Origin: Moniliella sp. 'wahieum'
Lineage: Eukaryota
Assembly: GCA_003971905.1 (NCBI GenBank)
Contig: RSEE01000002.1
Coordinates: forward strand, 868,001-932,000
DNA length: 64,000 bases
Reading direction: 5' to 3'
The notes below the pieces were generated by a model. The model was given only the letters and a program-made list of their open reading frames with translations, ran no database searches and was not told the origin of the DNA. Position 1 is the stretch's first letter. Every line of letters begins with the position of its first letter. The position numbers were made by a program, and so were the translations under genes. This document shows, in pieces, positions 4,162 through 63,459 of this stretch.

Positions 4162-4531
4162 GGCGAGGGCCCTGAAGCTCCGAAGAGGGTGGGGGTGGGG
4201 GAGAAGAAGAGCCACCCAAGCCGGCAGTGGTGAGGCGTTGAGGCGCCCATTGGGCGAGTCCATTGTTTTTACTCTTAGCACGCCATTCTTCGTGCACTAG
4301 CTATTGTTGCCTGGGAGCAGCCCACGGCGGCCAGCACGGCGAAGCCACGCCGGATAACAAAAACTCCGTGTTCAATGTTCAATTTGCAGGATACCCCACA
4401 CGTGACATTTGACAGGCAAATTTGAAATGGGCCGGCACTCCCAGCCCTGCCAAAAGGTGCATTCGACAAGTCGGTGACATGCATGTGACCGCCACCCTGC
4501 TATAAGTACACCACGTTAATTAAGTTGCGGG

Positions 4532-4662
4532 ACGCGTGACGCGTGAGCCGGGGGCGGGCGCTGCGGCTGAGGTAAGGAGGGCGGGGGCGGGGACACTGGC
4601 GCTGGGCGGGGTGGGGCTGTGACGCGTGACGCGTGAAGCGTGACGCGTGACGCGTGACGCGT
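4532..4662. promoter_or_regulatory. Cluster of 7 MluI cell-cycle-box (ACGCGT) motifs in the MET10 / APSES-TF divergent promoter
   Basis: ACGCGT at 4532, 4539, 4622, 4629, 4643, 4650 and 4657, arranged as (TGACGCG)n about 200-330 bp upstream of the APSES gene ATG. Function is inferred only. Confidence 0.5.
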
Positions 4663-4857
4663 AGCATGCGTCCTGTGCGCGTTCCTGCATCGCAGCCCCT
4701 TGCAGCGCAGCTCCACAGGGCGGGCAGGCGCTGCAGCCTAACGGGCTAACCGGTTAAGGCTGCTGCCCCCTCCGCCCCCCACGGCCCCCTCTGGCCACGA
4801 CCGCGGCTGCTCCGTCTGCTGTGCGCCTGCCGTGCCGTGCCGCCGGGCGTAATCCCC

Positions 4858-7586
4858 ATGGACGCTGCATCGCCCGCGTCTGCTCCGACGCCCTCGGCCG
4901 GCAGTGCGCCCACACCGTCGCCTGTGCCGCCCAGCCCCCTCCCGCCGCCCTCGATGCCTGGCCTGGCAGTTGCCCCACCCGCTGCCGCTGCCGCTGCCCC
5001 TCCACCGCCATCTCCATGCTGCCGCCTGGGGCCCGCGGTGCGCCACCCCCATCGCCCCCCCGCACGCATCTATCTGGCGACCTACTCTGGTGTGCCCGTG
5101 TACGAGCTCACCGTCCGCGGCATTGCGTGCATGCGGCGGAGAGAGGATGGCTACCTGAATGCGACCCGATCCTCAAGGTCGCTGGGTGAGCAAGACGCGG
5201 CGGACAAAGGCGCTCGACAAGGTCATCCTCACCGGCGAACACGAGAAGGTGCAGGGTGGGTACGGAAAGTACCAGGGTACATGGGTCCCGCTTCCTCGCG
5301 GCATCCAGTTGGCAGCCCAGTTCAATGTCGCTCACCTACTCAAAACGCTTTTGGAGTTCGACCCTGCCTCGGACGGCACACTCACTGTCGCCCCCAAGGG
5401 CAAGCGACCCAATCGGAATGCGCCCTCGCAACAGAGCGTGAACCGCTTGCCTGCCAACCCCCCTCCACCTCCTCTCAACAACGGATCGGCAACGGCAGTC
5501 ACCGCTGCCGCCGTCGCCGCGGCGGCCGCGGCGGCCGCACCCCATAGATTTTTCACCCTGCCGCACCAGCAACCGGGCTATCCTCCCCCTCCCCCGGCCT
5601 TTGCCCCTCCCGAAACCAGCACTGCTTCCACTGCACCAACCCAGGTTCCTCGTTTCCTCCTCTGTGCCCGCCTTCAGACCATCCAGCCAACAAGCGGCCG
5701 CGATTCGAACCATCGACTTCGCCGCCGGGTCCTGCCCCATTGAGTGCTCGTGCGGGTCTCTTGGAAGCAGCCGGGAGGGCGGTGCTTTGGACATATTGGC
5801 TGGGCTTGAACCGGTACGGGATCTCAATACGCTTGGCCCCGAAGGGGGTCTGCTTCGCGCTGCCACCTTCGCCCTCGGACAGCCCCGGGGCCACTGCGCT
5901 CCGGATGGGCAAGAGTGCCAGGATGATTCTCGGTCCCCCCGAAGCCTTGGCGCATGACCCCACTGCCCGCTTTGCCGATCGCCCTCAGGCATTCCTCTCG
6001 GGGGGCAGACGAGGCGCAGGAACGGGCTTTGAAGGATGCCTTGACAAATGTCTTTCTGGACTCCAATGCCGAAACTGACCCGAACAGCCAATTGGCTACA
6101 TATACAACGCAATTGCAAGCCCTCTTAGCTCGCATGTCGGCTGTACTGGCTCAGGCCGTGGGGCCCTCCGTCTCCGTACCGGCGGTAAGCGTGAACATTA
6201 TGATTGACGACCATGGCCATGCTCCGCTCCATTGGGCTGCAGCATTGGGCCAAGTTGGCTTGGTCAAGATGCTGGTGGCTCTGCCCCCCAGTCAAGGAGG
6301 CGCAAACGTGCAAGCGGGCAATTTTGCGGGAGAAACAGCACTTCACCGTGCTGTCCTGGTCACGAATGGGTTTGAGGCGAACGTGTTTCCTGTCATTATG
6401 AGCTTGCTGGGCGAGTCAATGGCGACACGTGACTATAAGCGCCGCTCTATTCTTCATCACATTGCCATGGTGGCTGCCTTACGGGGACGGACAGCTTCGG
6501 CACGATATTATCTCGCCTCGGTGCTTGACGTTCTCTTCCCCCAACGCCCTGGCACGACCGACCCCGACAGCCAAGCCGAGCCCGTGTTTTCCCCAGCCAA
6601 GGCGCACGAACTGCTGAACGCGCAGGATGAGGATGGCGAAACGGCACTGGGCATTGTTTCTCGAATTGGGAACGCAGGTATGATCCGAATGTTGGTCGAG
6701 TGTGGAGCTCGCCAGGATATTCCCACACCTCGGTATTCGTCCAGCCGACTGGGGAGTAGGAACTGGCTCAGATGTCGCCAACGTGGCGGTCGCGTCAGAA
6801 GGGGCGAGTGCTCCTTCCATCCCGCTGGTCAAGGACCAAGATGTGATGAACGGTCTGTTTTCTCTTCTTTTTTTTCCCTCTGAGGCCTGAGGCTAACTGC
6901 GACGTGATCCAGGTATCCATGTAGTACTCCAGGACCTCAAGACACTCCATGCCGAGGAGATGAACAGCAAAAATGCGGCATTGGCTAAGGCGCAGGCAGC
7001 GCTCCAAGTCTCTACCCGTGCTCTTTCCACTCGACGACGACAACTGGCCGAAGCACAGCAAGCCGCTAGTGAGATTGACCAAGCCAAGCATACTGTGGCC
7101 CATGTGGATCAAATTGTTTCTTCTCTTTCGGCGCCGGACCCTGACTCTTCGCTGCCGCCCGATGAGCAAGGTGAGCTGGACGCGCTGCAGGCGGATCGTA
7201 CCAAAGCCAATCAACCTTGGGATCTGTTTCTCCAGCCTCACCTTTCTTCCAGTCCGATGGAGACGGATGCGGAGGCGGACTTGGTCCGCTTGCGCTGGCT
7301 TGCTACGGCGCTGCAACAACAAGCTTTCCAGTGGATTGCCAAGTCGGAATCCATCACCTCCCAGGCGGCCGCTCATGTGGCCCAATGTCGTCGCGCGGTG
7401 GCGCGGTGCTGTAACGTGGATGAAGCGCGGGTGGAGGATATGCTAGACGATCTGGTTGTTTCGGTCGAGTCCGATGGTCCTTCGGTTGACCTGGGCCGGG
7501 TGGCTGGGTTTGTGAACTTGGCCAAACCCTTCCCCGAGCCCGCCAACGCCATCCCCAGTCAGACCACCTCGCCTGTCGGATCTTGA
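4858..7586 (+). CDS. APSES/KilA-N + ankyrin-repeat G1/S transcription factor (Mbp1/Swi4/Res1-2 family)
   Basis: IYLATYSGVPVYE...MRRREDGYLNAT..ILKVAG...HEKVQGGYGKYQGTWVP (APSES domain). Ankyrin motifs DDHGHAPLHWAA, NFAGETALHRAV and NAQDEDGETAL, then a C-terminal coiled coil. Intron 6853-6912; several apparent frameshifts. Confidence 0.9.
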
Positions 7587-9340: not shown

Positions 9341-9741
9341 TCACAAGGCCTCTGGACCACGACAATAGGGCTCTCTGGGGACCCAACAACAAAAATGAGA
9401 GTCCACGGAGAGCCCCAAAAGAAAAACGGTGTTGGTAAAGTCGGCTTGGCTGTTGGACTGTGAAAGCTGGGCATTTGGGAACGCCATATACGCGCAGCCA
9501 CAGCACTGCATGCGCGTGCCCCATGCGCGGAATATTAGAGATCAACCTGATCACCGAGCTCGGCCGGGCCTTAAGCCTTACTGGCTTCATCGACTGAAGA
9601 GAGAGAAATCGCAGCATGCCCAAGTCGGACCAAGAAGCTGCCTTTCCTATTCGCGTTTAACACGTTTCACGTCCATTCGAAAGTCACTAGTCACCGGTCA
9701 CCGGTCACCACAGAAGTTGTATTGTCTTACTGTCTTGATCG

Positions 9742-9869: not shown

Positions 9870-10589
9870 GGGTTAGATGTGTTGACGTTTTTTGAGGCTC
9901 GCCAGCGCTTGCCCTGGCCCTCCGCAACCCAAAAGGGGGGAGGACAAATGTGATTGGCATGATATAATGCTGAGCGCGCTGAGGCGCTGTGCCTCAGCTC
10001 TCAGGCTGAGAGATCTGAGATCGATTCCTATTACGCAGACGGAGAGGAAAGCCGCTTTATTGGTGGGGGAATAGTCACCAATTTAATGACATGTGACATG
10101 TGACATGTGACACCGTCTCCTTTTTCACGTGGACCATCCGTCGGGCGTTGCACTTGCACCCTCGTACTCTTGCCCTCTTGCCCTCTTGCACTCGTGCACA
10201 TTTTCTCTCCCCAACCGTTCATATAAAGACTCGGCGCTGAGCCCATCGGAGAGGATTGCTCCTCGCAAAATCGGACAGGCGCTTGCGCTGATACTGCTGC
10301 CAATTGGACATATGCATGGGCGCACGATCACGTTCACGCGCCAGTCCGATAGAACCCACCACACCAGGCTCGGCCCCCACACACTGAATCCCACCTTATT
10401 CTCCCCAAACCCGATAATTACTCAGCACAATAATTATACGTACTAGTAAACAGCCTATCTTAAACAGATAACGAGACCTGTGTAACTTAAAGGAAGAGCA
10501 CCCCCTTCCCCCTGCCTTTGCTCTGACGGTTTACCACCAACCTCCTAGAGTGCCCTTCCTCCCACGTTCCACGATCCGGCATTTGGACC

Positions 10590-13937: not shown

Positions 13938-15403
13938 TTACAGTCTGGTGAATACAGCTGTCTTATCGGAATACGGCCCCATCCTTCATCTCGCACAATG
14001 GTCAATTCGGGGTCATATCTATATCTGTTGCCGGTGCATGGACAGCCGCCCTATCGCGTGTGCTCCACCCACACGGGTGCAATGGACAAGTGCACCACCG
14101 TGCCTCGGGGCGACAAAAAGGTAGCGGGGAAAGCACTCAGGCGCGAGTGAGGCGTGGAAGAGAGCAAAGAGAGAGGAGCGAGATTCCAACTTACTTTTTT
14201 TGCTGGTCTTGTTATCTAGCCAGCTCACGTTGGTGCTATTAGTGATACGATCGGATCCCGGAACAAGCGAAAAGGAGATGATGAGCAAGAAGTCATATGA
14301 TTGATAGGGATTCATTGCTGTGGTGAGCGAAAGAAGAAGGTATTAGCGAAGAGAGTTGGAGGTTGGAGGCAGTGTCAGAAGAGATGATGACGCGTGACGA
14401 GGTCATTTCACAGCCGAGGCTCAGTCCTATTAGGAGAGGTGCTTCAAGCTTCAAGCTACACGCTTCAGGTGCCACGGACTTCCGCTTGTAAGTGCTAGTA
14501 GCTCTGGGTGGAAGCGGCGGAACCCGTAGTCTGGCTGTCATGCTCTCAGTTCTAATACCCAGCACTATGGTATCTCAAGGCACTCGCACGAGCCGCTTGT
14601 ACCGAGTGACTATTAGTGACTTACTGATAGTGATGCATGATGGATGAAGGTCTTTGTCCAATCCACAGAGGGGCCTAAGCCCTAAGCCTTAAATGGCCCA
14701 ATGGCCTATAGGGGACCATGGCGTATCCCTTCAATCTGAAGGCAAGTGCGAACCGTGCGCATATCTCGATATGGGGATTGCAACGTAGGATCCCTCCCTG
14801 CGTTGAATATATGGTTACCGGTTACCGGTTACCCGTGAGCCAGTGTGCGGCTGTGGCGCTTGCTCTGTATGTCTCAGATACGAGTAATAGCAAACCACTG
14901 CTTGTCCATATTCAACGCATTAACCGGTAACGGACAGCGCTGTAGTGATTATAACGATTGTGGCGCAGATAAGATAAGCCCTTGGGAGGTTGCTCTGGCC
15001 CCGTGCTGCTCGCAGGGTGCATCAGGGGCAGCGCTGTGGACAGTTCCCCTCTGCCCAAACGTCGCCAGGCTGCTTACGAGGACCCTCGCCTAACCCATGG
15101 CGTAATGCTCGCATATCTGACATCATTGCATTCTCTCCAGGTAGCCGGCTATATTTCGCACGCGATGGTCCGCAGCCGCACGCGTGACGCGTGAGGCGCG
15201 AGAGGAGGTAGCAGCCCTCTATTCTGCAAGACCATGCGACATTATCAGTCGGATATCTGCCCGCCGGTACCTGGTTTTTCGCATTATCTTCTTGCCACCC
15301 TCCCCCTCCCCCTTGCCTTGAAAACTGCGGAGACCAAGGTGCGATAATATGTCCTTGACGCCACACCTGCCTCCTGCTCCTCCTTCCAACCATCACCGCC
15401 ACC

Positions 15404-19780: not shown

Positions 19781-20630
19781 TTAGGTCGCATCATCGGCCA
19801 GTACTTCAGCCCCCGGTCGGGTAGTCTCTCATGCCCACAATATCTATCACGGTCCCATTGTGACGGAGGTCATCATCAGCGTACACAGCATGAAGAGAGG
19901 GTAATGTAGTACTTGCTAGCCCGATCATTTTTCTTGATCCGTCAAAAGCGCATGCCTACCAAACACAGCTGTTACGTTCGTCATCGACAACCAATGAACC
20001 GGTACTTAAACACTAAACACTAACCCCCGTCTCCGCTTTCCTCACCTATCGCACGAGCAAACAGGGACTTCACCATTAGATCGACTATGCTTTTGTTTTT
20101 GTTCTACATATCATCTTGGAATTACGATGCTGTGTTACATGTTATAGTAGGACCGACAGCTTTGACCGTTGAGACGGTTGGCGTTGATTGATGTGTGGGT
20201 AACCGTATTCGATAATCGGTGTAACCGGGTATTGGGGTCGTGTAAACGCCCTCATACATAAGATGTGGTATGTGCAGTGGTGCTGAACGAGTGGAAGGTG
20301 TGAGATGTGAGAGGTCACCGGGGGTTATGCATGACATGTCGATGAACCTTGAAGCTTGAAGCTTGAAGGTGTGTGGTGTTGACTGGGTTGAACGTTCAGT
20401 TGAACGTTGACTAGTTGCTAGTGACTAGCGACATGCCGACTCCACTTGCCGAAAGAAGCTGTCTACATGACTAGTGACTGCCAGTCGGTAAATTCAAATT
20501 GAATCCCGAATCATTGATTGAACGGCCGGTGGTGCACACGACCGGTTATAAGTGTGGAAGACGAACGGAAGTGAGGGAGGGATGGTTGTTCTATTCCAAG
20601 AAGAAGCTTCTCGACACAGGAAGGATACAC

Positions 20631-20674: not shown

Positions 20675-21613
20675 ATTCGAGGGGAGAGTCGGACAGGAAG
20701 GAGTGATTACGAAATGGTGGCATGCCGGCGTATTTGCAATCACGCCAACAATAAGGCCCAAGGCCTAAGGCCTAAGGACCGGTAAGGTGATGGAGCGGGT
20801 GATTGAAAGTGAACATTGAATTCCGATGCGTTGGAGCGCTGAAGGCACAGCCCGGCACTGCGTGGTGGTGCGGGCGATGGCCGTTCGATGATCAGCGATC
20901 GATGAAGGTGCCGTCGGCATCCTTGCTGAGTGCATGACTGCCGCCGGGAGCTGCAGGCATGAAAGCGTGCTACGTCGATCTGTGTTCCAGCCAACACAGT
21001 CCCCGCGCTAATTTGCCGCAAGCGACTGGCGTTTGGCCGTGTGGTCTGTAGCCCGCACAGCGGCAGAGAGGACCGTCTTGGCGGAAGGGCTGTGGGCCGG
21101 GGTCACTCGCCCTGTGCGATGCTGCTCAGTCGCCGGTTGTCAGTCTGTGGCCTGGTGCTGGTCTGTCGCGGCTGCTGGCTCAAGGCCTGAGGCTGAGCGC
21201 TCAGGCTGAGCGCTGAGCCTCAGCCTCAGCGCTGGACCTGAAAATCGTAGATTGTCCATCATCGATCATCGATCATCGATCCCCCCCTCGATCACATGTC
21301 GAGGGAATTGCAATACGCTGGAGGCAATCGCAGTACACTGGAGAGAAGCGCAGCGCGCTGTACTGGCCGTTTGCCTGTATGCGTGTCCTCAGTTGCATCG
21401 AGGGCGGCAGTGTGAGCCCGCGTACAGGGCAGCTTCAACTACCGTCTGCAGATCACTTCAGCTTCAAGAACACCTTCTTCTCCTTCAAGCTTCACCACCA
21501 CCTTTTCCTTTCTTCTTTCTTCTTTCTTTCTTTCTTTTTGTTTTCTTTTCTTTCTCCCAGCCTCCTCCCCCCTTCCCCCCCCCCCCCTCTCCACACCCAC
21601 CACGCTCTTTACC

Positions 21614-24133: not shown

Positions 24134-27088
24134 ATGGCCCCGGCGCCTCCTCCACCCCGCCACGTGGCTGTGTCTGCTCTCACGTCTGCGTCTGCGCCCG
24201 TGTCCGAGGTGCTGCATCAGCGCTTCGCCTCCTTGCCCAGCACCATGGCCAGCCGGTCCGGCCAGAAATCCCCCCTCCCGCCCGGCAAGCGTCCCGGCAG
24301 CGCCAGTAATGACGTGTACCAAGACGAATACGCGTATGCTGTCGACGCCGACGATCTCGACGACGCCGATAACGATGATCTCACCGAGCCGTCCGACGCG
24401 ATTCAGCTCCAGCACCTCCTCCCCAGCGGGTCCCGCCCGCATGACGTGGATCTCGAGCAGCCCGGCGTCACAATCGACGAAGATGATGAGGACGACCCGA
24501 TGCGCCTAATTGCACAAGCTGTGCCCGAGACGGACGACCCGAGTCTTCCTGCACTTACGTCGAGTGATGTTGATTGGCACGGCTTTCTGCATCACCGGCG
24601 CCGCCGTTAGCCAGGTACGTTCTTCCCTCCCTCAGCCAGCTCAGTCTTGGATACGAATTACAGGTCTTGCTTGATATATGATAGCTCTTCTTTTATCGCA
24701 GTAACTCGTTCGTTTTTCTCTTGCTCTTATGCGTCGACCTAGTCCTGACCCCCTGTCCGGCCCTCCCCCGTTCCACAGCCTTCTTTTTCACCTTACTTTG
24801 TCATCCTCGCTTCCCTGCCCTTGGCCAGTGGATGGCTCGCGCTCTGCCCCGCCTCAGTATCCATGTACCCTTCTTGGGCTCGTTTGAGCTCAATCCGGGT
24901 CCATTCAATGTCAAGTTCGTCTCCCTGTGCCTACACCGAGCTGCCTCTTATATGGGCTTTTGCCGACTGACCTTTGCATTTTGACCTTGTTGATGGAACA
25001 GAGAACATCTGCTGATCGCCGTCTTGGCCTCATCAGGGGCATCATCGGCATACGCATCCGACATCATCAACATCCAAGATATCTTCTTCCACCAAAAACT
25101 TTCCAACACAGCCGCCTCGATCCTCATAACAACCCAGACTCGGGCTTTGGCTTCGCCGGCATGGTCCACGACATTCTTGTCCGGCCTGTCGCGATGATCT
25201 ACCCTGGAAATCTAGTCACCTGCTCCTTTTTTACACCCTGCACGGCGACCGCCATGGGTGGCTTACTCAAGCCCGCCTGCGTGTGTTCAATGCTGTGTTT
25301 ATCGCCATCTTTGTCTACCAGTTCCTTCCTTCACTGTTGGCACCGACTCTGTCCAGCATCGCTCTCCTCTGTCTTTTCAACAATAGGAGCAGCACACTTC
25401 GCGTTTTGTCTAGCGGGTACAAAGGTTTCGGTTTCCTCGACTTGAGCTTTGACTGGAACGCCATTGGCGACAGTGGACCACTCTTCACACCTTGGGTGCG
25501 TTCTCCATTCTAGCTTGCCTTTCTTCTGACCGTATCTCTTGATCTGTGCTGTCCCTAATTCAATCTTCTTCTTGCACAGTGGGGTATGTGTACTCCCCCT
25601 TCTGTCTCTCTTGATTGAACTTACTTACCTCTGTTTTCTTGCAGCCAATGTCAACTTTTTCGTGGGAATCGCAGGCATGATGTATATCGCCCCCCTTCTG
25701 TACTTCAGCAATTTTTGGGATGCAAAATCGTTTCCCTCGGCTATTGGTTCGCAGCTGTACAATGCGTCGTACCTACCCTTTGACGTGGAAAGTGTTCTTG
25801 TGCCGCACGACAAAACCTTGGACCGGGCTGCCTGGGAGCAGAAACGGCCGTTGCTTTTAACACCCTTTTTCGCCATGACCTACGGTTTGAGCTTTGCTGT
25901 GCTAACCTCGATGCTCACCACGTCGCCCTCTGGCATTGGGACGATATTCGCCGTGCTATTTTCTACCCTCCGACAGAGGATGTGCACAACCGGCTGATGC
26001 GCGCATACGATGATGTGCCCCATTCGTGGTACATGTGGACGTTGGGCGCTTCTTTGACCGCTCAATTTGGCTGATTTGGACCCACCCTGAACTGCAGTTG
26101 CCCTCTGGGGCTTGTTTCTTGCCATCGCAATTGGTGCCATCTTCGTCGTACCCGTGGGAGTGCTCAAGGCGGTGAGCAATACCGGGATTGGGCTAAACGT
26201 GATTACCGAGTTTGTTGCGGGCTACGTCTTACCTGGTAAGCCAATCGCCAATGTGCTCATCAAGTGCTACGGCTACATGAGCATGTCCCAGGCGCAGGAC
26301 CTTCTTGCCGACCTCAAGCTGGCGCATTACATGAAGGTTCCACCCAAAGGTACGTTTTCCTATACCGCTTACCTCCCATGCACCCACCCTGACTTAGGAC
26401 TGGGATCGTTCAGTATGGCCATTGTTCAGTTGTGGGGCACGGTGGTTGGGTGTGTGGTAAACTTGATCGTGTTGCGGATTGTCCTTTCACCCTCGAACAC
26501 CTACCGTCAATTCCTTGACGGTACCGAGGAGGACCCGACAGGCCAGTGGACCGGCCGCAAACTCCACATTTTTTATAGTGCCTCGATCATCTGGGGAGTG
26601 GTGGGCCCTGCCGAGTTTTTCGCTGGAAAATACCACATCTTGTACTGGGGCTTCCTCTTGGGGGCTGTGCTGCCTTTGATCCCTTGGGTGCTCCACAAGC
26701 GCTACGGAACCCAGTGGCTCAAACACATCGCCTTCCCCATCCTCATTCATGGCGCGGGTACGCCGCCCCAAGTGCCCACAAATGTACGTCCAGCCCTTGT
26801 TGGTGTGTGTGTGATCCTCCTACTGACTGACCTTCCCCCCTATCATGTCTTGTTCAGATTATCACGACGGGGTTCATTGTCGCTTGGTTGTCGCAACAAT
26901 GGGCCCGCAAGCGGCACCCGCAATGGTTTGAGCGGTACAACTATGTCCTCAGTGCTGCTCTGGATGCCGGCGCGAGCATCAATGCGTTAGCCTGCTTCCT
27001 GCTGACAATCAGTGTCCTCAAGGTCATCTCCGTTCCCCACTGGTTCCTCAATCCGGTCCGGGACAGCGAGCACTGTTCCCCTTCCTAG
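24134..27088 (+). CDS. OPT-family oligopeptide transporter
   Basis: VPETDDPSLPALT, LNPGPFNVK|EH, IGLNVITEFVAGY..PGKPIAN...K.YG, DLKLAHYMKVPP and WFERYNYVLSAALDAG. Several introns and frameshifts. The start could be 24244. Confidence 0.92.
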
Positions 27089-27568
27089 CCCTGCCCTCTA
27101 AAAATCCACACCTCCCTCCCTCCCCTCCCCTCCCCTCGCTCTTCGTCTAGTACCACACGCAGAATTGATGCAGCAAGTAGGAGAGGTAGGAATGACGATG
27201 ACCCCCCAGGTATTGGCATCGTTGCCTCCGCTTGGTTCGATGCTCACGTGCAACATCCCGCGTGTTGGGGGTCGTGTGCGAAGGCGCAGCCCCGCCCCGC
27301 CGCTCCACAGTCCACGCAGTCCGATGTGTGCCGGGAGCAGCAGCGCTGGAATTGCAAAGTTGAAACGCCACAGCCGTTGCTTGAAGCTTGGACGTTCGGC
27401 GGGAACGATCGATGATCGATGATCGGTGGTGGCATTCCGCCCCATGCATTTCCGCCTCGAGGCCCCCGTTTCCCCACACCGCCAAGGCAGCCGGGAAACC
27501 CCATTTACCCTGTCTGCAGCGTGAATCGCCGCTCTGCCGCAACCAAGCTCCATCCATCGGCGCCCGCT

Positions 27569-28896: not shown

Positions 28897-29733
28897 ACTC
28901 TTGAGGATGTGGATCGATACGGGCTTGTCGGAACCGGGTTTGCTGGCTTCGTCTACCTTGAGCCACCACTGGCAGATGGCAAATGGCCAGTGATCATTCG
29001 TACCGAGAAGTGCCGTCGTTTCTTTCACGCAACTCACTATTTTGGGCTCGAGCGTTTCCCGCGTACTGCGCTCTTCACGATCCTGGACCCATCCCTCCTC
29101 AAGGACCCAAGTGTGAAATGGGGCCTGGAGTGAGAACCCCCCGCTCCCTACACCACTACCGCCCCCGCTATGCGGAACTGCCCTGGTCCATGAGCTTCCA
29201 CTTGACCCGGCACGGCCCAGGATGTCGCCCCCGCGCTCTCATCCACCCTGCTGGCCACCGTGCTCGCAGCCTCGTATTCATTTGATACCAGGGCATCTTG
29301 ATAGGGAGTGCGTAGTGGCGGGCTATATGCAGATTCGCTTCGTCTCTTCAGCAGACATGTCGGGAGGCAAAAGACCATTTAAATCACTGGGAGGAGGGGA
29401 TTCCTACAGCCTGTTATTTGTGACATTGAATGTCCAGGCTCGCACTAGCCCCATCATGCATCATGCATCAACGTTCAACACTCGTTCGCTCCCCAACACC
29501 AACGTCTGGAGCCAATGGCGTCCAGGGGCCCTCCGGCTCATGCAATGACAGATTAATTTCCGGTGCGATCGGTACAATCGGTGCATGGCGCGCATCATGC
29601 ATCATGCATCAGTGGTGCCACTCAACGTGAACATTTCACGGTTTGGGCCTTGCCTTCCACTTCCCGTCTGCGTCTGCGTCAACGTTCAACGTGGAATGCG
29701 GAGTACGATCTACGACCAGAGTGTTTCCCCTGA

Positions 29734-30711: not shown

Positions 30712-31644
30712 ACGGCGGCCTGCCTCACGCGCAAGGCCCACCCCTCAGCCGACTGCCGTCCATTCCTCCCTCGCGCATGCTCTCGCCTTCATTGAGGTGG
30801 GTGCAAGCGTAAGAGTAGCGCGCGCGGGGGTGGATTAGCCCTATGGTGAACGTGGTTGTGCTTGCGGTGAAACCACTTTTTTGTCCTTCTTGCCTCATAG
30901 ATCATCGACGCCATAGCCTGCAGTTCAAACCGCACATCTTGGCATCGACTCTTGGCGGTTATTCATCGGTGACACATGCTCAAAGGTGCCAACTGAGCCT
31001 GTGTACAAGACGGTGGAGAGGATGACACAGAGGAAACGGCAGTAGCGAGGCGGCGCCCAAGGATGCGAAGGGGGGAGGGGGCTGGCAATGAAGTGGAGCT
31101 ATAGAGATCTGAAAGGCGGCTTGCTACCATGATGCATGATGCATGATGTAACAGGTGATCATGATGATCGATGATCAATGACGTGGGTAGGGCATCCGGG
31201 GTCGTGTTGTCGCGTGATATATGATGGGTGATCGATGGCCCATACTGCGTACTGGGTACTCATCGAGGCTGTGTCAGATTGTCGGATACGGTGAGCGCTG
31301 AGCCACTGAGAGGCTGAGCTCAGCTGAGCCCGAGGCACTGCGGCTGAGCGGCTGAGCAGGAAACCAGTGAGTGGTGGGTGACGGTGGGTGACTGGGCGGT
31401 GTCGGCCCACGGCGCCTGTCTAACCGGGCGGGTCAGCATGGCAGCCGCCGGGCGGAAGGCGGAGGAATTTTCTTGGGCCGCTGGGACCACCCCCTCACAG
31501 CGCCAGTGTGCCGGCACGTGCTGGTGGCGGCCCGAAATTTATCGAATGTCCTTTCGCTCCGCCTCGGCAGCAATCAATCGCACCGCTTCCTTGTTACCCG
31601 CCGCCGCTCTCCCTTTGCTCCTTCTTCCACCCGCTGGACCAGGC

Positions 31645-33880: not shown

Positions 33881-34376
33881 TGTTACGCGTATGGGGCGCA
33901 CCGCCTATCTCCGCACGCTGAACCCCGCATGTCTTAGACATCTCAGCCCAACACGCGGCAGTCCTGTTAGACTAGCGAGAGAGAGCCAGTCGACACCTTA
34001 TCCATGCTGGGGATATTATCGATCATCCGCGGCCCGCCATGGTCGCATGGAACCCATCAACAAGGTACCGAGTGTGCTAACCCTGAGGAACAGAGTAACT
34101 TCGGAGATCCTCGACCCCTTCAACTGGTCTGAGATCTGACGACCTACGTATGCGGCTCCTATCTCGCAGGGTCTGAGCTGCGGCCTTGGCACGCAGCCAC
34201 CCTAAATGGAGGGTCTCTCCTTCGCCTCTACACCCGCTCGGTTCAACCAGGATCTGAAGTAGGACCTAACGTGCGAGACACCGACGATTGGCCTGTCCAA
34301 GAGTTTATTATACCCTTAAAGTACAGGGGGGGTCCCACCTCGGGACTCCCCCCCATGACATGCATGACAGGTGACA
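33881..34376. mobile_element. Solo LTR (496 bp)
   Basis: TGTTAC...GTGACA termini (5/6 inverted match) flanked by a perfect 5-bp TSD, TTGTA (33876-33880 and 34377-34381). Confidence 0.7.
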
Positions 34377-35399: not shown

Positions 35400-36842
35400 G
35401 GCGCGTATATAAACTCCGTCGGGCTTGCCATAGACCGTCTTCGCCCGTGACAATATCCGCCCTCTGTCACGGTCCTCATAGCTATTCGGGTAAATCTTTT
35501 CACTGCTCTTGTCGCTGATCCTGTTTCCCTTTCCCCTATTAATACCAGTGCATCCTTGCTTCCCTTGGTACTTTTAGTCTCACTCGTATATCGCCCGACC
35601 CTTACATGTTACACCCACCCCCCTAAAATGAAACAGATGATCACCGTGCCGTGACCACACCACAGTGCCTTCAGTGCCCATCTGCACATTATATGCCACG
35701 CCGCCCCGGTCACCGGTCATCGGTCACCGCTTAACAACACATCTCGGAGGTTCCGATGGTTTCCAGCATCCTACTGGCCTTGAAAAAGCATCTTGAAGGG
35801 GGGGGATAGACGAAGCCACCCCTGCCTCCCCTAATAGCTCTGATGCAATATACCAGCTTCTCTACCTTTTTGCCTATACTGCTAGTTATAGGACCGTGAC
35901 TCTTTGGTTTTCTTTGTCACGCGGCACGTACGAACCCGTATAGCAACCCGCATAATGGTGTACTTTTGGTGCAGCCTATATGCCCTGGCACTCTAATGTA
36001 TAGGAAAGCATATGTTACCCCTGCTTAAACGCCCCCTTTAGATAATAATGTGGATAGCTACAAATGGCAGAGATTAGGTGCGATCACTCAATCATTAAGC
36101 CGGGAGCAAATTCAAGCTGATGAGAAGGCCCGAGAACTCTGAAGCTTGAGGATAACTCCCCCTTTTGATGTCTCAAGGAAGAACGAAGAAGCATCATTGA
36201 ATCCTATTGAACCCTTCGCTGCGGTCACATGATGCATGATACCACACCAACACCTTTTCATCAGGTATAGACAACTTGCGCCAATGGATGAAAAGGGGAA
36301 ACCCCTGGAAGAAGGGGACAAGAATCGAATGCTGATGTGAATGTGCAATTGTATATATAAAAAGAGGAGGTACACATGGATCATTGAAGATACCCATATC
36401 GCCCCTTTGTTGTGTGCACTCTCGCAGTGTATAGTTCTGCGCCATCAACAACGCCGACACAAGAAACATTGTGCCCATCCTTCCTCTTCATCTCCATCTG
36501 CGATTCAGCCGTTGAGCAAAACATGGTTAGTTTCGCTCCATCCTTTTTCCCTGCTGTTGGTTTCTGATCTTGCACGTCATCTGTTGCAAGGCAGAGTCTG
36601 TTCTCTCCTCTTGAGCCTTTCTCTCCAGAAACCAAGAAGAACGAATACTGACACTCAGTTTGCTGTCTTGGTTTATTCGCAGAGTCTGACTTGGTACTTT
36701 GACTACCCTCGTCCACCTCATACTCCCACGCCCGAGCCCCTTCTTCGCCCTCTTGGATCTGGCCTCGCACCTCTAGCGCATCGCAGTCATACACGGTCTT
36801 TACAGGCTATGTGTGCAATGACCGCAGCAGCGCATCCCCAGC

Positions 36843-39664: not shown

Positions 39665-40778
39665 TATGAGCGCACACCAGGATCGATCCCGCTCTCGCTC
39701 TCCGCCCCGCATTACACTCAACGCTCACTCCTCAGTATCAAGTCTTTGCAACAACAGACAGAGGCAAAGTAGGCCCGGGTATCACCATGTTATGTTTGTC
39801 TTGCCCATTTTCGGTTTTTTTCTTTCACAAAGCATCATGTGCATCATGTCCTCATTGCAATCACTGTGCCCTCTGGCTGCGGGGGAAAAGGCGCAATAGA
39901 GAGCAGTTGATATATATATTGGCCAGATTTTATCTTTTTGTCGTTTTTACCTTCCGCACCAAGGCACTCTCGAAGGGCGGTGAAGCCGGTGAAGCTTGAA
40001 GCCAAGTCGAAGATCCAGATCTGCCTTGGCCTACACACATCTCCCCTCCACATTCCCCCCTTAATCCCCCCCCTTAGTTTGATGGTTAGCCTAGAGTGCC
40101 CACGCGCAGTATAGGCGCCCATTACGGTCGGCCAAGGCATCATGAGGGATGGATGGCGTTGTAGGGGGAGGGGGGGATATATCTGCTCGACACGTGTGGG
40201 TGCGAAGGAGGGGATCATGGAATTAGTAAAGCGCAGGAAACAACAGTCAACAAACATTATGTGCATCACATGCTCCCTAGGACAAACGGCTGTACATCCA
40301 GCATTATTGCAGGCAATATAAGTGTAATTAGATTGAAGGGATACGTTATGAGCCTCCAGGGCACAAGCAAAGCTAGATTCATCTTCTACGTTCCGTGCGG
40401 CGCACCTGGCTGACCTGGACGGTAACAGATGAATCAAGAGACGAGGATGGGACGGAAGACCATTGGTCTTTAGGATCCGACCTGACCCGACCCGACGCGG
40501 GCACTGACATTCGGCTGCGCGGTGCGCCTGCAAAAATCTAAGAGGGTAGGGCAAATTCGAGCCAGATAAGAAGTAGTATAGTCCAGGGAGTAAAGTAGGA
40601 AAGAGGCCAACAGCAAAACAAGATAAGGAGCGGGGGGGGTGTACAGGAAGAACCTTCAATTAAGGCGTGGGAGCGAGTGTGGGGGGCTAGGTAAGACAAG
40701 CGGACGAGACTGCATCCACGGGGAAGAAAACGTGGATCATCGCGAACATCTCAGAGTTGATGGGAAAACTGGAAACAA

Positions 40779-44458: not shown

Positions 44459-45536
44459 GATGGCGAGATGAACCGCGGCCGCAGATACACGGGGCTGGAC
44501 GCGGGGGAGAGAGAAGAAGGGGGAGGAGAAGGAGAAGGATCGGGTGGAAGAGGAGGTGGTGGGGGCCGGTGGGGAGCGGGGCGACGGAGGCGGCGGTGCG
44601 GGGAGGCTGCATGCTGGTGCTCGCGGGCGGTCTGCCGCAGCTGGACGGATGGAGCGCATGGAGCGCAGGCAGCTCGCTCGCTGTTCTGATGGCTCGCTCC
44701 CAGCCAGGCTCCACTTTTGAGCCTGCTCGCTCCCGCACACGCCCCCACGCACGCGCTGGTGCCAGGCGGATGCTCCGCTGGATGGATGCCCATCATCCAT
44801 CATCGACATCATCCATCATCCATCCCACACACGACAGGGTCTCGCAACATCCTCCCTCCCCACGGCCACTGCCCTCCGCCCCGCCCCGCCCGCCCTCCCA
44901 CGTCGCTGGCCAGGGCCCACCAGTCAACATGCAACGAAGCCACTCAGCCACTGTACTCAGGCTTGGCTCAGCGGACAGCCCCAGACTCAGCCACTGGAAG
45001 CTTGATCCCCATCGGTCCCCCCATCCCGCTCGTATTGGCTTGCCACGCGCTAATGAGACCAGCTCCCCGCAGATCCAGCTCCAGCGCCCAGCAGGCTCCA
45101 ACTCCAGCGCCAAGCACCACCCTCCACTGAATATTGAATCGCGGCCTGCACAAAGCACGTGCGGCCCACCCATCCCATCTACGTCCCTGCCGGTCTTTCG
45201 CCAGGCACTGCCTGAGCTCACGTGTTTGTACAGACAGACATGCACTTCGTTCGTACTACGAAGCCAGAAGGCGTTTTGGCGCAGTTTTGCCAATACAGAA
45301 GACCAACCTCAATCTCGATCTCACCAGCCACCCTCGTCGATCACCGATCATCGTACATCATGCATCAAAGTTGAGCGTGCATCCACCGTCAGCAACGTTG
45401 AGTTCTACGGCAACAGCGTGGCTGCCCCCCCCCCGCCTCGCCTCAACATTCAAGCTTCAAGCTTCCAGTTCCAACCTGTTCCAACGCTGAACGCTGAATC
45501 CCAAGCTCCGCTGCTCCTCGCATCTCACCCATCACA

Positions 45537-48517: not shown

Positions 48518-49199
48518 GGTGGAGAGGGGCGGTGGTGGTAGAAGTTGTGGGGGCAGCTAAGAGGCGAGATCTGCATTCCTTCGGCAGTCATCGGCTGATG
48601 TGTTTATTTGCGGGTGATGACGTGGAGCAGGCAGGGTGACCGGTGACCGGTGACCGCCATCGTAGCACTGTGGCTCCCTGGATTATCCTCGGCGCATGCG
48701 CCTTCCCGTGGACTCCGGTGCTACCGACCGAAACCACTTCCACTCGAGCCTTCGTCTCCCTCTGTGCGCGCGACCAACTCTCCCTACTAGTGTTACAGGT
48801 TATACGCGGGCCTCCGCTTTCGTCCGCCCCCCAAATGCAGCGGAAGCGTAGTCACTAGTCACTATCAGGCCGATCGGACCGGAACGGTCTGGTTATGTCC
48901 GGCGTGGCCAAAGCGGCCACCAACGTCCCTATACGCATCTTTGAGTAGCTTTCCCAAAGGATCCATTGGCGTCTCCGCCTCCCTTTCTTCAGTCCTGTTG
49001 GGCCACCGGGCGGCTCGTGCTTGGGCCCAAGCCCCTTCAGTCCCCCTCAGGCCTAGGAATTCCTGTTGTATTGTCTCTCTCATGTTTGTCTTTGTTCCGC
49101 AGCTTAGCCCCTGGTGACAATTCCCTGCTTGATGTTCCTCTGTAGTAGGTGTTGCTGGTTGGCTTAGACCACCACTACCACAAGTGCGATTGCATCTAG

Positions 49200-51091: not shown

Positions 51092-52360
51092 CTACACTGA
51101 AAAGAATGGGCTATATATGTGGAGGATATAGGACGCGTCGGTGGGGAGCATCATCAGCGCTACTAAGTAGTACTAATTTTGAGAAGTGGGTGCATTGTGT
51201 GCGGCGCATCAACATGCTGTCTGTTTGTGGGTGGACAAGAAAAGGGGAAATAAGGGATCTGGTTCAGGGGTTGATGCTTTTGATAGAATGGCCCAGAGGA
51301 CTGTAGGAGCAGAGCGCTTGTCAGATCCAGACGACGAAAGAGAGGCACGACCGGATGACACAGCCGAACGGGCTATGGAATCCTCCACAACAAAGCTGAT
51401 GCTACGTTACATCGATGTGCGCTGTGTTTATTTACCGTCTTACACAACCAGAGGCCCACACAGCCGGGGGGCGCAGCACAAGCCGGACAGAGCCCCCCTT
51501 TTTTACGATTCACAATAAGAGAGCGGGTCTGGACACCAAGAGGGTCCGCCGCACATCAGGCACACGTTTGTAGATGTGGTCCCGCTTTCCCAGGCAAAAC
51601 AAGAGCTAATGTGGGCCGTAGCATCCGCTGGACGGAAGTGATGGCTTGGGCTCCTGGTATCACTGCTATGGGCCAGGGATTCTGTCTCTCTCCCCTCGGT
51701 TGATCAACATCCCGGCAACGTCCACACAGCGCATGTTGCCCTTTTTTGGCATACTCTGTGATAATTCAATCCTTTGGACTGTCGTCGCGCTGCGGATGGA
51801 CAGCTACGTGAGCCGGCCTGTGCGTCTACGGGGCGGGTGTGGGGTGTGTTGCGCGCAAAACGAAAAGGGGGCAAAGGGGCAAGAGGGGGGCAGCGCGAAT
51901 GACAAAACAAGAAAGGAGCAAGGGCGGCGGGGGGCGGAACAGAGAGAGGCACGGGAGGAGCGTCACCGGTTCCTCACCGGCCCCTTTCCGTGGGTTATCA
52001 ATTGGATATTGATATACTGATAGGAAGGGAATACGACATGGGAAACGTTCAATAAACTCCGCAGTGGGTACTGAGCTTTGCTGTATGTCCGCAGCCAAGT
52101 GCCTCTCGAGCTCACCGAAAGACAGAGTTGGTCTCCAACTCTGTACCCTGTGCCCCCCGTTCATCGATCATCGCGCAGCAACTAGCAGCTGCAGATGTGG
52201 TCGGATGTCACATGCATGTCATCGACAGGTTGGAGAGACACGTTGGATGAGATTGATGAGAAGGGTGTGTGACATGCGGTCGTGGTCAAAAGCTTGTGCG
52301 CTCTTCCATCCATGATGCATGATCGATGATCGATGATCCCCATATTCTCAACGAGCCGAC

Positions 52361-52457: not shown

Positions 52458-52620
52458 TGTTAATAATATCACACGGCACGCGTCACGTGTCACACGATTC
52501 AATGATGCATGTCACATGTCACATGTCACATGCTCACACGCCTACCCTGACACGGGCCACGGCCACACCCAACACAAGATCGCACGGCAAGTCACCCGGC
52601 CATGTACTTACATACATAAC

Positions 52621-59353: not shown

Positions 59354-62300
59354 TCACCACAAACGAGCGCCCGAAGCGGGATAGAGAGCTAGTGTGGGGT
59401 GTGGGGAGCACAGGGCTAGGAAGGGTATCAAGACTTTTTCCCAACGAGCAACGACGGTCACCTGAAGTAAATATTGGCTTGAAGCTGATCGAGTAGAATC
59501 GACTAGGGTGCGCGGGACAGCCAGCGCATCGCCTGAGGGAGCGGAGGCGCCGGCAGTTGGGTTGGAGGCAAGGGGAACCAAGCTCGTGTCTGAGAGGAGC
59601 GCGGCAGAGGATCCAGACAGACCAGGTTGCTTGGGGGTGGAGCCAAGCAGGGCTTGGTCGGCCTGTGCTTCGAGCAATTTAGTGTACTTGTCCTGCCACA
59701 AAACACGATTATGCTCTTCTTCCTGTACACGGGAGCGGAAACTGGCCAACTGGGCCTGTAAGGCATTCAGTTCCTCCAGGAGACCAGAAACTTGGCTCTC
59801 CATTGCCTCTTTGACCGTTTGGGCCTCCGTCCGGGCTTGCTCCGCTTCCTTCTGCGCCTGGAGAAGTTCGGAAGACAGTTGGGTCGTGGGAGCCCGTTGC
59901 GCTTGCCTATGCAATTCGCTCAGCTCCATTTCGAGGTCTTTCACCCTCATCGAGAGCGCAGCAGGGTCCATTCCCAACGTTACTGTCCTCAGCCCGGCAC
60001 GGGAAGGAGTGGTGGGACGTGCAGGAGTCGTAGGGCGGGAAGGCGTGACAGGTCTCCGCCCTTTCCGACGGGAGGAGGACATGGGGCCTTTGCTTGCTGA
60101 GGATAAAGTCTGAGCGCGACGGCGGGGCATGCCCATGCCCAGCCCCTCGGCGGAAGGAGTGGTGGTCGGAAGCCCGCCATTAAGAGAATGGGGAGAGGCC
60201 ATTGGGGCGGAAGGAAGCGAATAGAGCTTGTCATGGGAGAAGCCAGGGAGAGAGGAAGAAACCCCTGGCCACGGTTGGGGCGAACCCGCACCCGAAGATG
60301 GGGAGGCTGAAATGGACGCCGATGGGAGAGGATGAGTCCAGCTCTTTTGGACAATCGCTTCAATTTTGTTCAAGGCTGTGTGGATTTCAGCGATGGAACT
60401 TGAACGGCGTGGAGCACTGGCATGCAACATCGAGCAATAGGCTTGCCAATGCTCCTGTAGAGCCTTAGCAATTTCCTCGGCCTGGTGGACACGCTGAATC
60501 AAATCCATAATATGCGGCGTCACAGCCGCCCAGCGGAGTGATAGCGGGAAGTTATTGTCCCAGTTCCAATGGAGAGGCGAGTTAGACGTAGGCGAGGTTG
60601 GAGAGGTCGACATGGTTTCAAACTGGGCCGCTAGTGCAGCAAAGCGGGCATTCTTCGCCTTGGGTTCCCCAGATGAAGGCTGCGGCTTGGCAGATGACGA
60701 TCCGAGACGTGCAGACGCACAGCCCCTGGGGAAGAGTGTGCAGAAGAGCGAGTAAGCCTCCTCATCGGAACGAGTGTCGAGAGCCAAATTGGTGTCCAGT
60801 GGACTGGGCGGGTAAGATCCAGGGTCGTAGAAGGGTCAGCAGGAGGTGATGGAAGTTCTGGGTCGCCGAGGTGAGAAAGTGCCGAACGGATCAAAGCAAG
60901 TTCGGTCTGGAGGGTGGAGAGGTCCGGCAGCGCACCAACGGAGGGTGACCCGTCGACTTGAACATGCTCCATGTACAACTGCCGCGGTGAGGACGATAAG
61001 TTCAAGGGGGAGGTGCGGTGGGTCTTGTATCTCTCAACGAACCCGTACGGATCAAAGAAGGAATGTTGAGGGGTGTCTTTCGAGGTGGTAAAGCTGGTGG
61101 AATCTTGGGTGCTGGTACATCCGAGAGTACTTCCTCAGTTGCGCGTCCTTCCGTTGAAGGTTCGACATCCTCGACAGGTTTGGGGCTCAGTTGATCAGAG
61201 AGAGATTGGAGGGACCGGCTCGGCGCAAAGCATAGCCTTTGATCCGCTCCAACTCATCGAGCAAGTCGGCAAAGTGAGTTGAGAGGCGATCGACCAACTG
61301 CTCGATATCTGCGCCCGTATCCTCGTCTTTGCGCGGTAAAGCTTGCCCCATCTTGATCTGGGATAAGAGCATATCCATCTCATCCGCCCATCCACCTTGC
61401 CCAATGCCCGCGCTGCCGATTTTTCCACATCTCGCAATCCTTCTTCGGCCTGCAGCAAGCGATCAGCAAAGAGCGAAATGAGTGGCTCCCTGACCTCATC
61501 CTTCGTTTGAAGGGCAATCAACTCGTCGGATTTCTGGGACAGCTGAACTTCGGCCCTCCTCCTAGCACCCTCTGCGCAACCAATTGGGCTTGAATGGTCT
61601 CCGTCTCATGCCGTGCTTGCTGTACCTCAGCCCTCAGAGTGGCTGACTCGGCCAAAGCAGAGCCTCAACTGCAGTTTGGTCGGAAGCGTCGAGGACAAAG
61701 TCCGCTCCATATCTCTCCTGTCGGCCAATGCATGCTCCAGATCACCCCGGGCCGACTGGGCTCTTTCTGTGCTTGGGTGGCCGCTAAGCGGGCGCCTTCG
61801 AGCTTCCGTTCGAAGCGGTCAGCCATTGCGCGCTTGCTCCATTTCTTGCTGCGCGATACTGAGATCCCTACGGGCATCCGTGCCTGTTTGAGCCACGTCT
61901 CGTTCTTGCACCACACCGCGTACTGGGCTTGAGCTTCAGCCTGAACCGTTCGTGTTGCTTCAGCCAGTTGGGAAATCTTAGGCGCCAGAGAACGTTCCTG
62001 CTGGGCTAAGCGGGAGGCAAGCTGTTCCTGGTGCGTAGAGCGAAGATCAGCCAGTTCAGTGGAGTGCTGCGTTTGGATTTGGCTCAATCCATCCCGGACT
62101 CGCGCCAGTTGAGTCTGTGCCTCATCACGTTCCCTCTGGGCTGCAAGAAGAAGTGCCGAATCGGAGCCGGGACGCCGCAGTGCCTGGTCCCTCTGAGCTG
62201 GGGTAAGAATTGTGGGCAGCCAAAGCGGAAATGTGATGCTGCAGTACATCTGAACGCAACCTTGATGCCTCCTCTGTAGCCTCCAGCAGCTGGGACGTCA

Positions 62301-62616
62301 ATCGCGACGTGGACGCAGAAGAGGTATCGTCGCTAGCTGCATCCGCACTCGGTGGAAAGGTACCATGCAGAGTATCGTACGCGTTGCGTAGGGCCGACTC
62401 CAATCGATGGCGCTGTTGCAGGTGCTTGACTCGCCTCTCGGTGCGGACGAGCGCGACCTGCGTGTCGGTCAGTTGCTCCGGGGGGAGCAAGCCGCCATGG
62501 ATCGCTGGCCGCAGCTTGTCCGCCATCAGCGCCTCCGGGGGAGGCGCATGCGGGCCCAGCAGCACCTCCATCAACGCACTCTCGGATACGTTGGGGGTGG
62601 CGCTGCGCTTCGCCAT
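59354..62616 (-). CDS. Long coiled-coil protein with N-terminal Uds1-like (up-regulated during septation) domain
   Basis: RHRLESALRNAY...EASRLRSDVLQHHISAL resembles the Uds1 domain, followed by several coiled-coil ORF fragments in series on the minus strand. The 3' end is approximate. Confidence 0.55.
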
Positions 62617-63459
62617 GGAGGGCGTGCGAGGCGGTTGGGGGGTGAAGCCTGAGGCCGCGGCGGCTGCCTCGCCACGCTGCGTCGCGGCCAGCCTGGGCCC
62701 CACACTGCCCTCGGGCCTCCAACCCACAGGCATCACGTGATGATCCCTGGTGCATGATGCATGATGCGCCTCCTGGCTCCGCCTCCACGCTGCCGGAGGG
62801 CCGCGCACACGAGCAGTGTCCATTCCCCAGACCCTGGCAGCAACCCTACTTGTCCCTTGAGCGCGTTCGCCCCAGTACACTGACGACGGCTCACGCGCTC
62901 ACACAAGGAGGCCCCCGGTCAGTCGGCGCTGCTGGGCGCAGTTCTTCGTTTGCACGTTCGCATACTGGGCGCCCTCGGACCTCGCGGCCTCAGAGACGAG
63001 CCTCATCCCTCGCCGATCATCTTCGCCCTCATCCTGCCAAAATCGAAGCCGGTGGATTGAGCACTGGCGTGCCAATGCCGTTTACAGTCGAGATGTGGAA
63101 GAAAATTGCAGGCAGGCTTATAATACCTTAGGGTTAGTACAATATCGCAGAGCTGGCACGGTAAATGTGGGTCGCATAATACTGCCACACAATCGTTACG
63201 CCCAAAGGGAGGCGGTAAACGTGGTAAACCCGAAACATAGAATGGGCACTGAGCCTCAGCGCTCTTATTACATGCCACGTACAGAGCGTAAGCATCAGGC
63301 TGATGGCTGTGCCATGAGGCTCATGTCGCTGAGCTGAGCGCTGATGCATGAAGTTTGATGCAATGGGACAAGACACTCGGCACCTAGTATCAGGTTCTCC
63401 CGATCGTTCAACGCGTGTTCTGTTTGCTAGGGCCAAAAAGCCAAAATTATACTAGAAAG

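Follow-up and report, generated by a model that had tools for sequence, protein, structure and literature searches.

Flank-templated arrays of TNA triplets and palindromic spacers in non-coding DNA of a Moniliella contig: possible scars of a hairpin-forming excision process

How does a fungal genome come to carry, at dozens of places in its non-coding DNA, short arrays in which a TNA triplet recurs every 7 bp with a 4-bp palindrome between successive triplets? We addressed this question in a window of 64,000 nt from Moniliella sp. 'wahieum' (assembly GCA_003971905.1, contig RSEE01000002.1, positions 868,001 to 932,000); the window is this whole stretch, and coordinates are counted from its first base. 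A first-pass annotation had reported roughly 30 such arrays with 11 different spacers and had proposed that they are footprints of a hairpin-forming transposase with a 5-bp target-site duplication (TSD). All 25 of its example positions and all 11 spacer types were located in the sequence, and our recount gives 41 loci in which spacer and flank are consistent. The TNA-palindrome-TNA signal is real and lies far beyond chance.

Counts refer to the + strand unless stated, and were compared with Markov simulations of order 1, 3 and 5 (100 each). The window contains 182 occurrences of TNA-w-TNA, where w is any tetramer, and the two triplets share the same N in 126 of them. The tetramer is palindromic in 73 cases, 66 of which keep the same N. 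This number compares with 0–11 same-N palindromic cases in the other 15 X.Y triplet contexts, and with simulated means of 2.25, 2.01 and 3.96 (maxima 7, 6 and 9) for the three orders, in agreement with the proposed excess of palindromic spacers. Thirteen of the 16 palindromic tetramers are used. The AT-only tetramers had not been spotted before, but TATA (n = 2) and ATAT (n = 1) do occur; AATT, TTAA and GTAC are absent from the window as palindromic spacers. The 73 palindromic-spacer matches group into 51 clusters and the 66 same-N steps into 47 loci, 41 of them flank-consistent; these 41 comprise 28 loci with one exact step, 8 with two, 4 with three and 1 with four. G or C occupies the N position in 77 of 85 steps (background 73%).

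Many period-7 arrays are also listed by Tandem Repeats Finder (TRF) at a low threshold. There are 42 exact period-7 runs with two or more copies, compared with 7 such runs at period 8 and 8 at period 9; three or more copies are reached by 11 period-7 runs and by 0 at the periods compared. In 26 of the 42 period-7 runs, a rotation of the unit reads xyTNAy'x', a 7-base palindrome except for its centre, whereas only 10.4% of 7-mers have a palindromic rotation. The centre is flanked by T and A in all 26.

With regard to the structure of a single event, an unbiased scan was made for a k-mer followed by the reverse complement of its last m bases and then by the same k-mer (k = 3–9, m = 1–5; TNA was not assumed). 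A clear excess with large counts was found only at (k, m) = (5,2) and at (4,3), which is an equivalent structure; a few cells with long k and long m, holding 1–6 matches each, also exceeded their tiny expectations. T.A is present in 85 of the 119 (5,2) matches on both strands (background 4.1%). Among the 102 (4,3) matches, the second base is A in 94, and T precedes the first copy in 85 of these. The earlier description of each step as a 5-bp direct repeat (TNApq or xyTNA) with two mirrored, P-nucleotide-like bases is thus structurally borne out. The spacer equals the reverse complement of pq in 85 of 116 TNApq..TNApq pairs, where 1/16 is expected; in 36,469 bases from six unrelated, eukaryote-like metagenome contigs, taken as a small control (six distant Rab GTPase loci with 39–70% identity), only 1 of 7 such pairs was mirrored. 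The lengths of period-7 runs with TNA-palindrome-TNA peak at 12 nt (4, 2, 15, 5 and 5 runs of 10, 11, 12, 13 and 14 nt, with a tail to 26), which indicates a founding structure of 5 + 2 + 5, as runs made by slippage or by tandem duplication of 7 bp would be at least 14 nt long. In the window, no enrichment was observed for spacers of 1 or 3 mirrored bases, for a zero spacer, or for TNApqTNApq (n = 11), the product without P nucleotides.

Of the 66 same-N palindromic steps, 15 have a spacer that can be predicted from the left flank alone and 18 one that can be predicted from the right flank alone; in 26 either flank suffices, and in 7 neither does. The claim that the flank predicts the spacer accordingly holds in 59 of 66 steps, and the exceptions reported at 14921, 36140 and 59154 each belong to the seven unpredicted steps or are imperfect. 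In the 33 one-sided steps, the palindrome was built from a non-palindromic flank. It is invariably the non-TNA end, and never the TNA end, that is mirrored; the 15 matches to TNApq + N'A + TNApq are without exception TGATG/TCATC cases that overlap themselves. Half sites have a similar composition whether mirrored or not, and the palindromic spacers are even palindromes. The 12-nt peak, the one-sided steps and the 13 spacers confirm that neither slippage nor a single transcription factor is the origin. Mirror copies that adjoin their own template without a loop are a hallmark of hairpin opening (P nucleotides), and the hairpin and P-nucleotide idea is supported.

The arrays follow a simple grammar. 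With L for xyT, R for Apq and a prime for the reverse complement, they read (L N L')n (L N R) (R' N R)m. Each array keeps the site that it started from, L N R, and new units mirror one half of this site. Both kinds of mirrored unit surround one junction unit at three loci (9684, 29454 and 52313). As (L L') lies beside (L R), neither slippage nor plain tandem duplication can be the source. A minor class consists of a 7-bp repeat, xyTNApq, with two mirrored bases between the copies (period 9). Six loci hold T.A-centred 7-bp repeats at distance 9, and the spacer mirrors an adjacent end in five; where the repeats at this distance are not T.A-centred, it is mirrored in 7 of 90 rows, close to the expected 1/16. 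Class (2,2) was found 4 times on the + strand, against 0.2 expected. Sites in which all units are one palindrome make up 12 of the 41 loci, about five times the expected 1/16.

By eye, 8 of the 16 non-palindromic period-7 runs contain TNA. Period-7 TNA arrays with a non-palindromic spacer lie at 40776-40798, 44790-44824, 20007-20023, 45483-45498 and 20299-20312; these may be plain 7-bp duplications, or mutated units multiplied by slippage. Chains of TNA at 7-base spacing with successive different palindromes were seen at 31215-31237, 22973-22989, 63335-63365 and 20325-20345, and can be reconciled with the grammar only by assuming some point mutations.

The loci avoid coding DNA. None of the 41 falls within Pfam-supported open reading frame (ORF) stretches, which make up 19.7% of the window and served as the coding mask (8.1 expected, P = 1.2e-4); a codon-bias mask discriminated poorly and was dropped. 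The density is therefore not equal in intergenic and coding DNA, a comparison the first-pass annotation had proposed. It had also placed the array at 6881 in an intron, which is probable in view of GT...CTAAC...CAG and a change of frame. The loci cluster in intergenic and promoter DNA, and many clusters are located upstream of genes, namely those for the permease, OPT, Pex2/12, GT2, DnaJ and metallopeptidase. Gaps between loci are shorter than 300 bp in 20 of 40 cases; when loci were placed at random on non-coding TNA sites 2000 times, such short gaps averaged 8.7 and never exceeded 17. The segment 20135-21485 holds ten flank-consistent loci, and about seven separate TNA sites bear a step within 20120-20500 (by eye). 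A long polypyrimidine tract, (CTTT)n followed by C-runs, lies directly downstream of the densest array cluster, at 21508-21588.

We tentatively favour the reading that a cut-and-paste DNA transposon, or an enzyme with like chemistry, left the arrays as scars at its donor sites, and that what looks like a TSD of 5 bp is probably the part that can be seen of a 7-bp duplication symmetric on N. The hairpins, the duplication and the transposon are all features that we infer from the scars. The agent would insert at NN-T-N-A-NN, with N mostly G or C, and would duplicate 7 bp symmetric on N. Excision would close each flank as a blunt hairpin, and host nucleases would open the hairpins 2 nt off the tip, leaving a 4-nt 3' overhang of two flank and two mirror bases; a 2-nt offset is usual for hairpin opening of the Artemis type. 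One overhang would then be ligated to the opposite flank at its recessed 5' end and the remaining overhang clipped, so that a net 7 bp would be gained, one flank being extended by 2 nt and the other recessed by 2 nt. Ligation of the top strand would give TNApq + rc(pq) + TNApq, and ligation of the bottom strand xyTNA + rc(xy) + xyTNA, rc being the reverse complement. If the second hairpin were opened at its tip, a +9 product (7-bp repeat plus two bases) would result, and if both were, a plain 7-bp duplication. The scar itself would be a perfectly palindromic 7-mer, whose overhangs would be cohesive in the next round and whose repair would be clean, such that repeated visits would build arrays, to which replication slippage may add. 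Local hopping would yield clusters of loci.

Several of the observations are expected from this scheme. Given that either strand may be ligated, left-only and right-only steps should be equally frequent and the half sites alike, as was found. The excess of sites with one palindrome is predicted because overhangs are cohesive at a palindromic site, and the TNA-containing non-palindromic period-7 runs are consistent with the plain +7 product. The T.A axis on N, the mirroring from the non-TNA end, the 7-bp-repeat class and the one-palindrome excess are all explained by a 7-bp duplication. Other schemes were worked through on paper. Symmetric duplications of 1, 3, 5 or 9 bp do not yield the observed product, and if a 1-bp duplication is paired with hAT-type hairpins, the result is (L L')(R' R), from which the junction unit is missing. 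Treating the 4-bp palindrome as the TSD and TNA as the remnant of an element fails as the arrays start and finish on TNA, while TG/CA remnants of a long terminal repeat (LTR) integrase fail as spacer sequence changes with the flank. Schemes based on a template switch, a flap or a snap-back, of which several were tried, did not regain register.

A number of points weigh against the scar reading. The first-pass annotation had suggested a search for hAT, Transib, Harbinger and other transposases, and for elements with terminal inverted repeats (TIRs); neither turned up in the window, as no transposase domain was found by Pfam in 214 ORF translations (batches of 17, 150 and 47, with the whole first batch scanned a second time within the other two), and no TIR element flanked by a T.A-type repeat of 5 or 7 bp was found in the 64 kb. 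The density of scars, about 1 per 1.5 kb, is extreme for an unseen transposon. Their products are highly stereotyped, whereas in rice a clean scar was left by only 8 of 94 excisions, according to PMC4423477. This comparison is tempered by the fact that messy or deletion scars would be invisible in the window. A Hermes-type hAT element nicks one base into the flank, which would produce odd palindromes with a complemented centre, but N is kept in 66 of 73 palindromic-spacer pairs here. We know of no superfamily in which a 7-bp TSD and blunt flank hairpins occur together with a TNA centre. The +5 product, expected from the off-tip opening of only one hairpin, was not enriched in the window; its lack would reflect the geometry of ligation. 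Finally, growth by slippage and growth by repeated visits are inseparable here. A separate observation concerns a nested foldback at 13560-13950, whose arms (13638-13707 and 13859-13928) are 86% complementary and are surrounded by further inverted and direct repeats; it resembles a miniature inverted-repeat transposable element (MITE), and no clear target duplication was identified for it.

The same absence of element and transposase speaks for a serious rival, a transposon-free host process with the same chemistry. A nuclease, repair or replication pathway would act on bendable T-N-A in open chromatin. It would make a break staggered by 7 bp, with hairpins capping the ends, or would switch strands in an equivalent way, and resealing would give the same +7; the nuclease could be a domesticated transposase. 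We know of no such host pathway in fungi. A host process would accommodate the extreme density, with near-saturation of TGA sites in some intergenic stretches, and the stereotyped products, which look more like fixed enzyme geometry than generic end joining (compare PMC4423477). A break without an inserted element, however, does not itself give two duplex copies of 5–7 bp together with hairpins, and the template-switch, flap and snap-back schemes require flank bases that are not there. We regard this process as rather unlikely. The original proposal, a Transib/RAG-like (or hAT5-like) element with a 5-bp TSD TNANN and a 2-nt P addition on one flank only, has the merit that the main product is literally a 5-bp repeat with two mirrored bases. 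Transib makes 5-bp TSDs and belongs to the flank-hairpin group, and a transposase of this kind was reported from one basidiomycete, soybean rust (PMC1131882). The hairpin and P-nucleotide component of the proposal is supported, as described above. Its 5-bp TSD is not, as the T.A motif is symmetric about N rather than the centre of the 5-mer, TNApqTNApq is unenriched, the P bases never come from the TNA end, and the 7-bp-repeat class and the palindromic-site excess are left unexplained. In this form the proposal is distinctly unlikely.

Microsatellite dynamics, with palindromic heptamers expanding by slippage, or selection, with palindromic hexamers such as ACGCGT kept as protein-binding sites, would fit the location of many loci upstream of genes. 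Some of the hexamers resemble known fungal promoter boxes, and the mutated-unit arrays and the non-palindromic arrays at 40776 and 44790 show that whole units do multiply. Nevertheless, the commonest structure has 12 nt, under two units; the one-sided steps start from a non-palindromic flank; there are 13 spacers and an array in a probable intron; and slippage cannot place (L L') beside (L R). Slippage is refuted as the origin of the founding events, although it may play a role in later growth, and either explanation is very unlikely to account for the arrays. An assembly or sequencing artefact is hardly conceivable. The loci are absent from Pfam-supported coding DNA, they are specific to T.A and they carry point mutations within arrays, and to our knowledge no platform error makes flank-templated 7-bp insertions.

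It is possible, if doubtful, that the arrays record an undescribed, self-reinforcing and site-specific mutational process, in the form of a very active hairpin-type element (7-bp NNTNANN target, local hops, uniform scar) or of a host enzyme with that chemistry, which writes tandem arrays of palindromic A-NNNN-T hexamers. Such a process would act in introns as well as promoters, with roughly 1 site in every 400 bp of non-coding sequence, and would provide a steady stream of new symmetric protein-binding sites. If the arrays are excision scars, they form an unusually clean genome-wide record of transposon traffic, in which the target (NNTNANN), the duplication (7 bp) and the offset of hairpin opening (2 nt) would be fixed without the element having been seen, and they would illustrate how scars seed microsatellite-like arrays. 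If no element exists, they would represent a new endogenous mutational signature. Either way, tandem palindromic hexamers are made just upstream of genes, for example ACGCGT up to six times at 4620, and are raw material for dimeric transcription-factor sites, which bears on promoter evolution. The T.A-centred signature of 5 + 2 + 5 and 7 + 2 + 7 is simple enough to be sought in any genome.

Table 1. Steps, arrays and variant products in the window. Left and right denote the flank that the spacer mirrors; L, R and primes as in the text.
Position	Triplet/spacer	Steps	Description
4537..4546	TGA/CGCG	1	left-flank type
4620..4657	TGA/CGCG	4 exact	array of 6 TGA units, one mutated
6881..6890	TGA/GGCC	1	right-flank type, probable intron
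9684..9707	TCA/CTAG, CCGG, CCGG	3	(L L')(L R)(R' R)(R' R), two different half sites
10087..10110	TGA/CATG	3	TGACA at start and end; left flank unmirrored
14388..14397	TGA/CGCG	1	right type, 12-nt structure
14444..14453	TCA/AGCT		older array, mutated units to 14467
14631..14640	TGA/TGCA	1	right type
14815..14831	TTA/CCGG	2	three whole palindromic units
15185..15194	TGA/CGCG	1	left type
20135..20144	TTA/CATG	1	left type, 12-nt structure
20350..20366	TGA/AGCT	2	three palindromic units
20389..20428	TGA/ACGT, CTAG		complex array, mutated units, one N flip
20468..20477	TGA/CTAG	1	right type
20766..20775	TAA/GGCC		array (20752-20777, one unit mutated)
21194..21216	TGA/GCGC		steps with one N flipped to TCA
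21259..21275	TCA/TCGA	2	
21485..21494	TCA/AGCT	1	left type
24672..24681	TGA/TATA	1	right type
27413..27422	TGA/TCGA	1	palindromic site
29454..29477	TCA/TGCA, TGCA, ACGT	3	(L L')(L L')(L R)(R' R)
29595..29611	TCA/TGCA	2	left type
29679..29688	TCA/ACGT	1	right type
31130..31146	TGA/TGCA	2	three palindromic units
31165..31174	TGA/TCGA	1	
31292..31301	TGA/GCGC	1	right type
34130..34139	TGA/GATC	1	left type
34354..34369			period-9 variant, 7-bp repeat CATGACA + 2 mirrored bases + repeat
35602..35611	TTA/CATG	1	right type
35710..35719	TCA/CCGG		left type, more mutated units to 35729
36230..36239	TGA/TGCA	1	left type
39833..39848			period-9 variant, 7-bp repeat CATCATG + 2 mirrored bases
39979..39999	TGA/AGCT		period-9 step (GGTGAAG + CC), then period-7 right-type step
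44798..44813			period-9 variant, CATCATC + GA, within non-palindromic period-7 TCA array (44790-44824)
45128..45137	TGA/ATAT	1	right type
45358..45367	TCA/TGCA	1	left type
45450..45459	TCA/AGCT	1	
48637..48653	TGA/CCGG	2	three palindromic units
48852..48861	TCA/CTAG	1	palindromic site
52161..52170	TCA/TCGA	1	right type
52206..52221			sole candidate +11 product, both mirrored dinucleotides kept
52313..52336	TGA/TGCA, TCGA, TCGA	3	(L L')(L R)(R' R)(R' R)
52512..52528	TCA/CATG	2	
62755..62764	TGA/TGCA	1	
63214..63229			period-9 variant, 7-bp repeat GGTAAAC + GT
63335..63351	TGA/GCGC, TGCA		chain (then AGTT, TGCA), partly irregular

The window is nuclear fungal DNA of about 57% G+C. Genes recognised by Pfam encode an FAD/NAD oxidoreductase, an ankyrin protein, a P450, an amino-acid permease, a Rab GTPase, an OPT transporter, Pex2/12, GT2, DnaJ, WD40, a PF12044 metallopeptidase with a jacalin domain, RRM and Mim2. 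The closest named relative of the permease is from Violaceomyces palustris (47% identity), two further assemblies reach 73–75%, and no close relative was found among the metagenome contigs searched, where the permease had no match and the Rab GTPase only the six distant loci of the control; these identities suggest a poorly sampled lineage, possibly basidiomycete. The metallopeptidase is encoded by two overlapping ORFs in different frames (52330-55187) that jointly form the PF12044 domain and then a jacalin-like lectin domain, and related 5' sequence recurs at 8753-8811 and 63505-63561. A segment of up to about 540 bp is repeated at 8316-8860, 37317-37770 and 63460-63997 (reverse) with 80–93% identity between copies, and partially at 9739-9870 and 20631-20680 (reverse). 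It opens with a conserved motif of about 45 bases, partial copies of which occur elsewhere, and several TNA arrays lie just outside the copies. The segment may represent either the 5' portion of a family of paralogous genes or a mobile-element fragment. Alignment of the paralogous segments 8150-9000, 37150-37950 and 63250-64000 (reverse) does not span the arrays and offers no comparison of empty and filled sites.

No description of such arrays was found in full-text searches, where subscription journals are mostly missing, and no known family shows all of their features. PIF/Harbinger elements (TNA/TWA target) resemble the arrays in that insertion has T-N-A as its centre and a dyad passes through N. 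Maize PIF prefers palindromic extended targets. These elements duplicate 3 bp and mostly excise precisely, whereas the repeats seen here span 5 and 7 bp and carry mirrored additions; a 3-bp TNA duplication was not observed.

Blunt flank hairpins are characteristic of RAG and Transib. This is consistent with the Muta1 hairpin of 43 + 43 nt, and documented cases of flank hairpins include hAT, Transib, RAG and MULE elements (PMC5499845). The arrays would resemble Transib/RAG in the proposed blunt flank hairpins, and they do so in the apparent 5-bp repeat and in symmetric targets, which have a central S in some Transib families. Transib has a 5-bp TSD and targets such as cCASTGg that are symmetric about the TSD centre and, as of 2005, was represented in fungi by soybean rust only (PMC1131882). 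In contrast, the axis here lies on N, so the dyad is one base off the centre of TNApq; a 7-bp-repeat class exists; and the motif is T-S-A, not A-S-T.

The hAT7 transposons of rust fungi have a 7-bp TSD (Kojima 2025, PMC12730594). Shared features would be a basidiomycete host (here only possibly), a 7-bp duplication and membership of a hairpin-excising superfamily. The duplication is suggested here by the period-9 class and the symmetry, and not by a visible element. No hAT domain was found in the window, however, and instead of Hermes-type odd palindromes with a complemented base, the spacers are even palindromes that mostly keep the same N.

Compared with the footprints of hairpin-forming transposons and V(D)J coding joints in general, the product described here is near-invariant, with +2 on one flank and -2 on the other, whereas the known ones are heterogeneous (PMC4423477). 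It also occurs at dozens of sites per 64 kb, in tandem arrays and with no element visible in the window. What is shared is the retained target duplication together with short mirror copies adjoining their template, and a 2-nt addition such as would be expected from opening 2 nt off the tip. Both marks of a hairpin scar are present: a retained direct repeat, of 5 bp in 85 steps (both strands) and of 7 bp in the six T.A-centred loci, and P-nucleotide additions beside the flank that they mirror, in 85 of 116 pairs and 59 of 66 steps.

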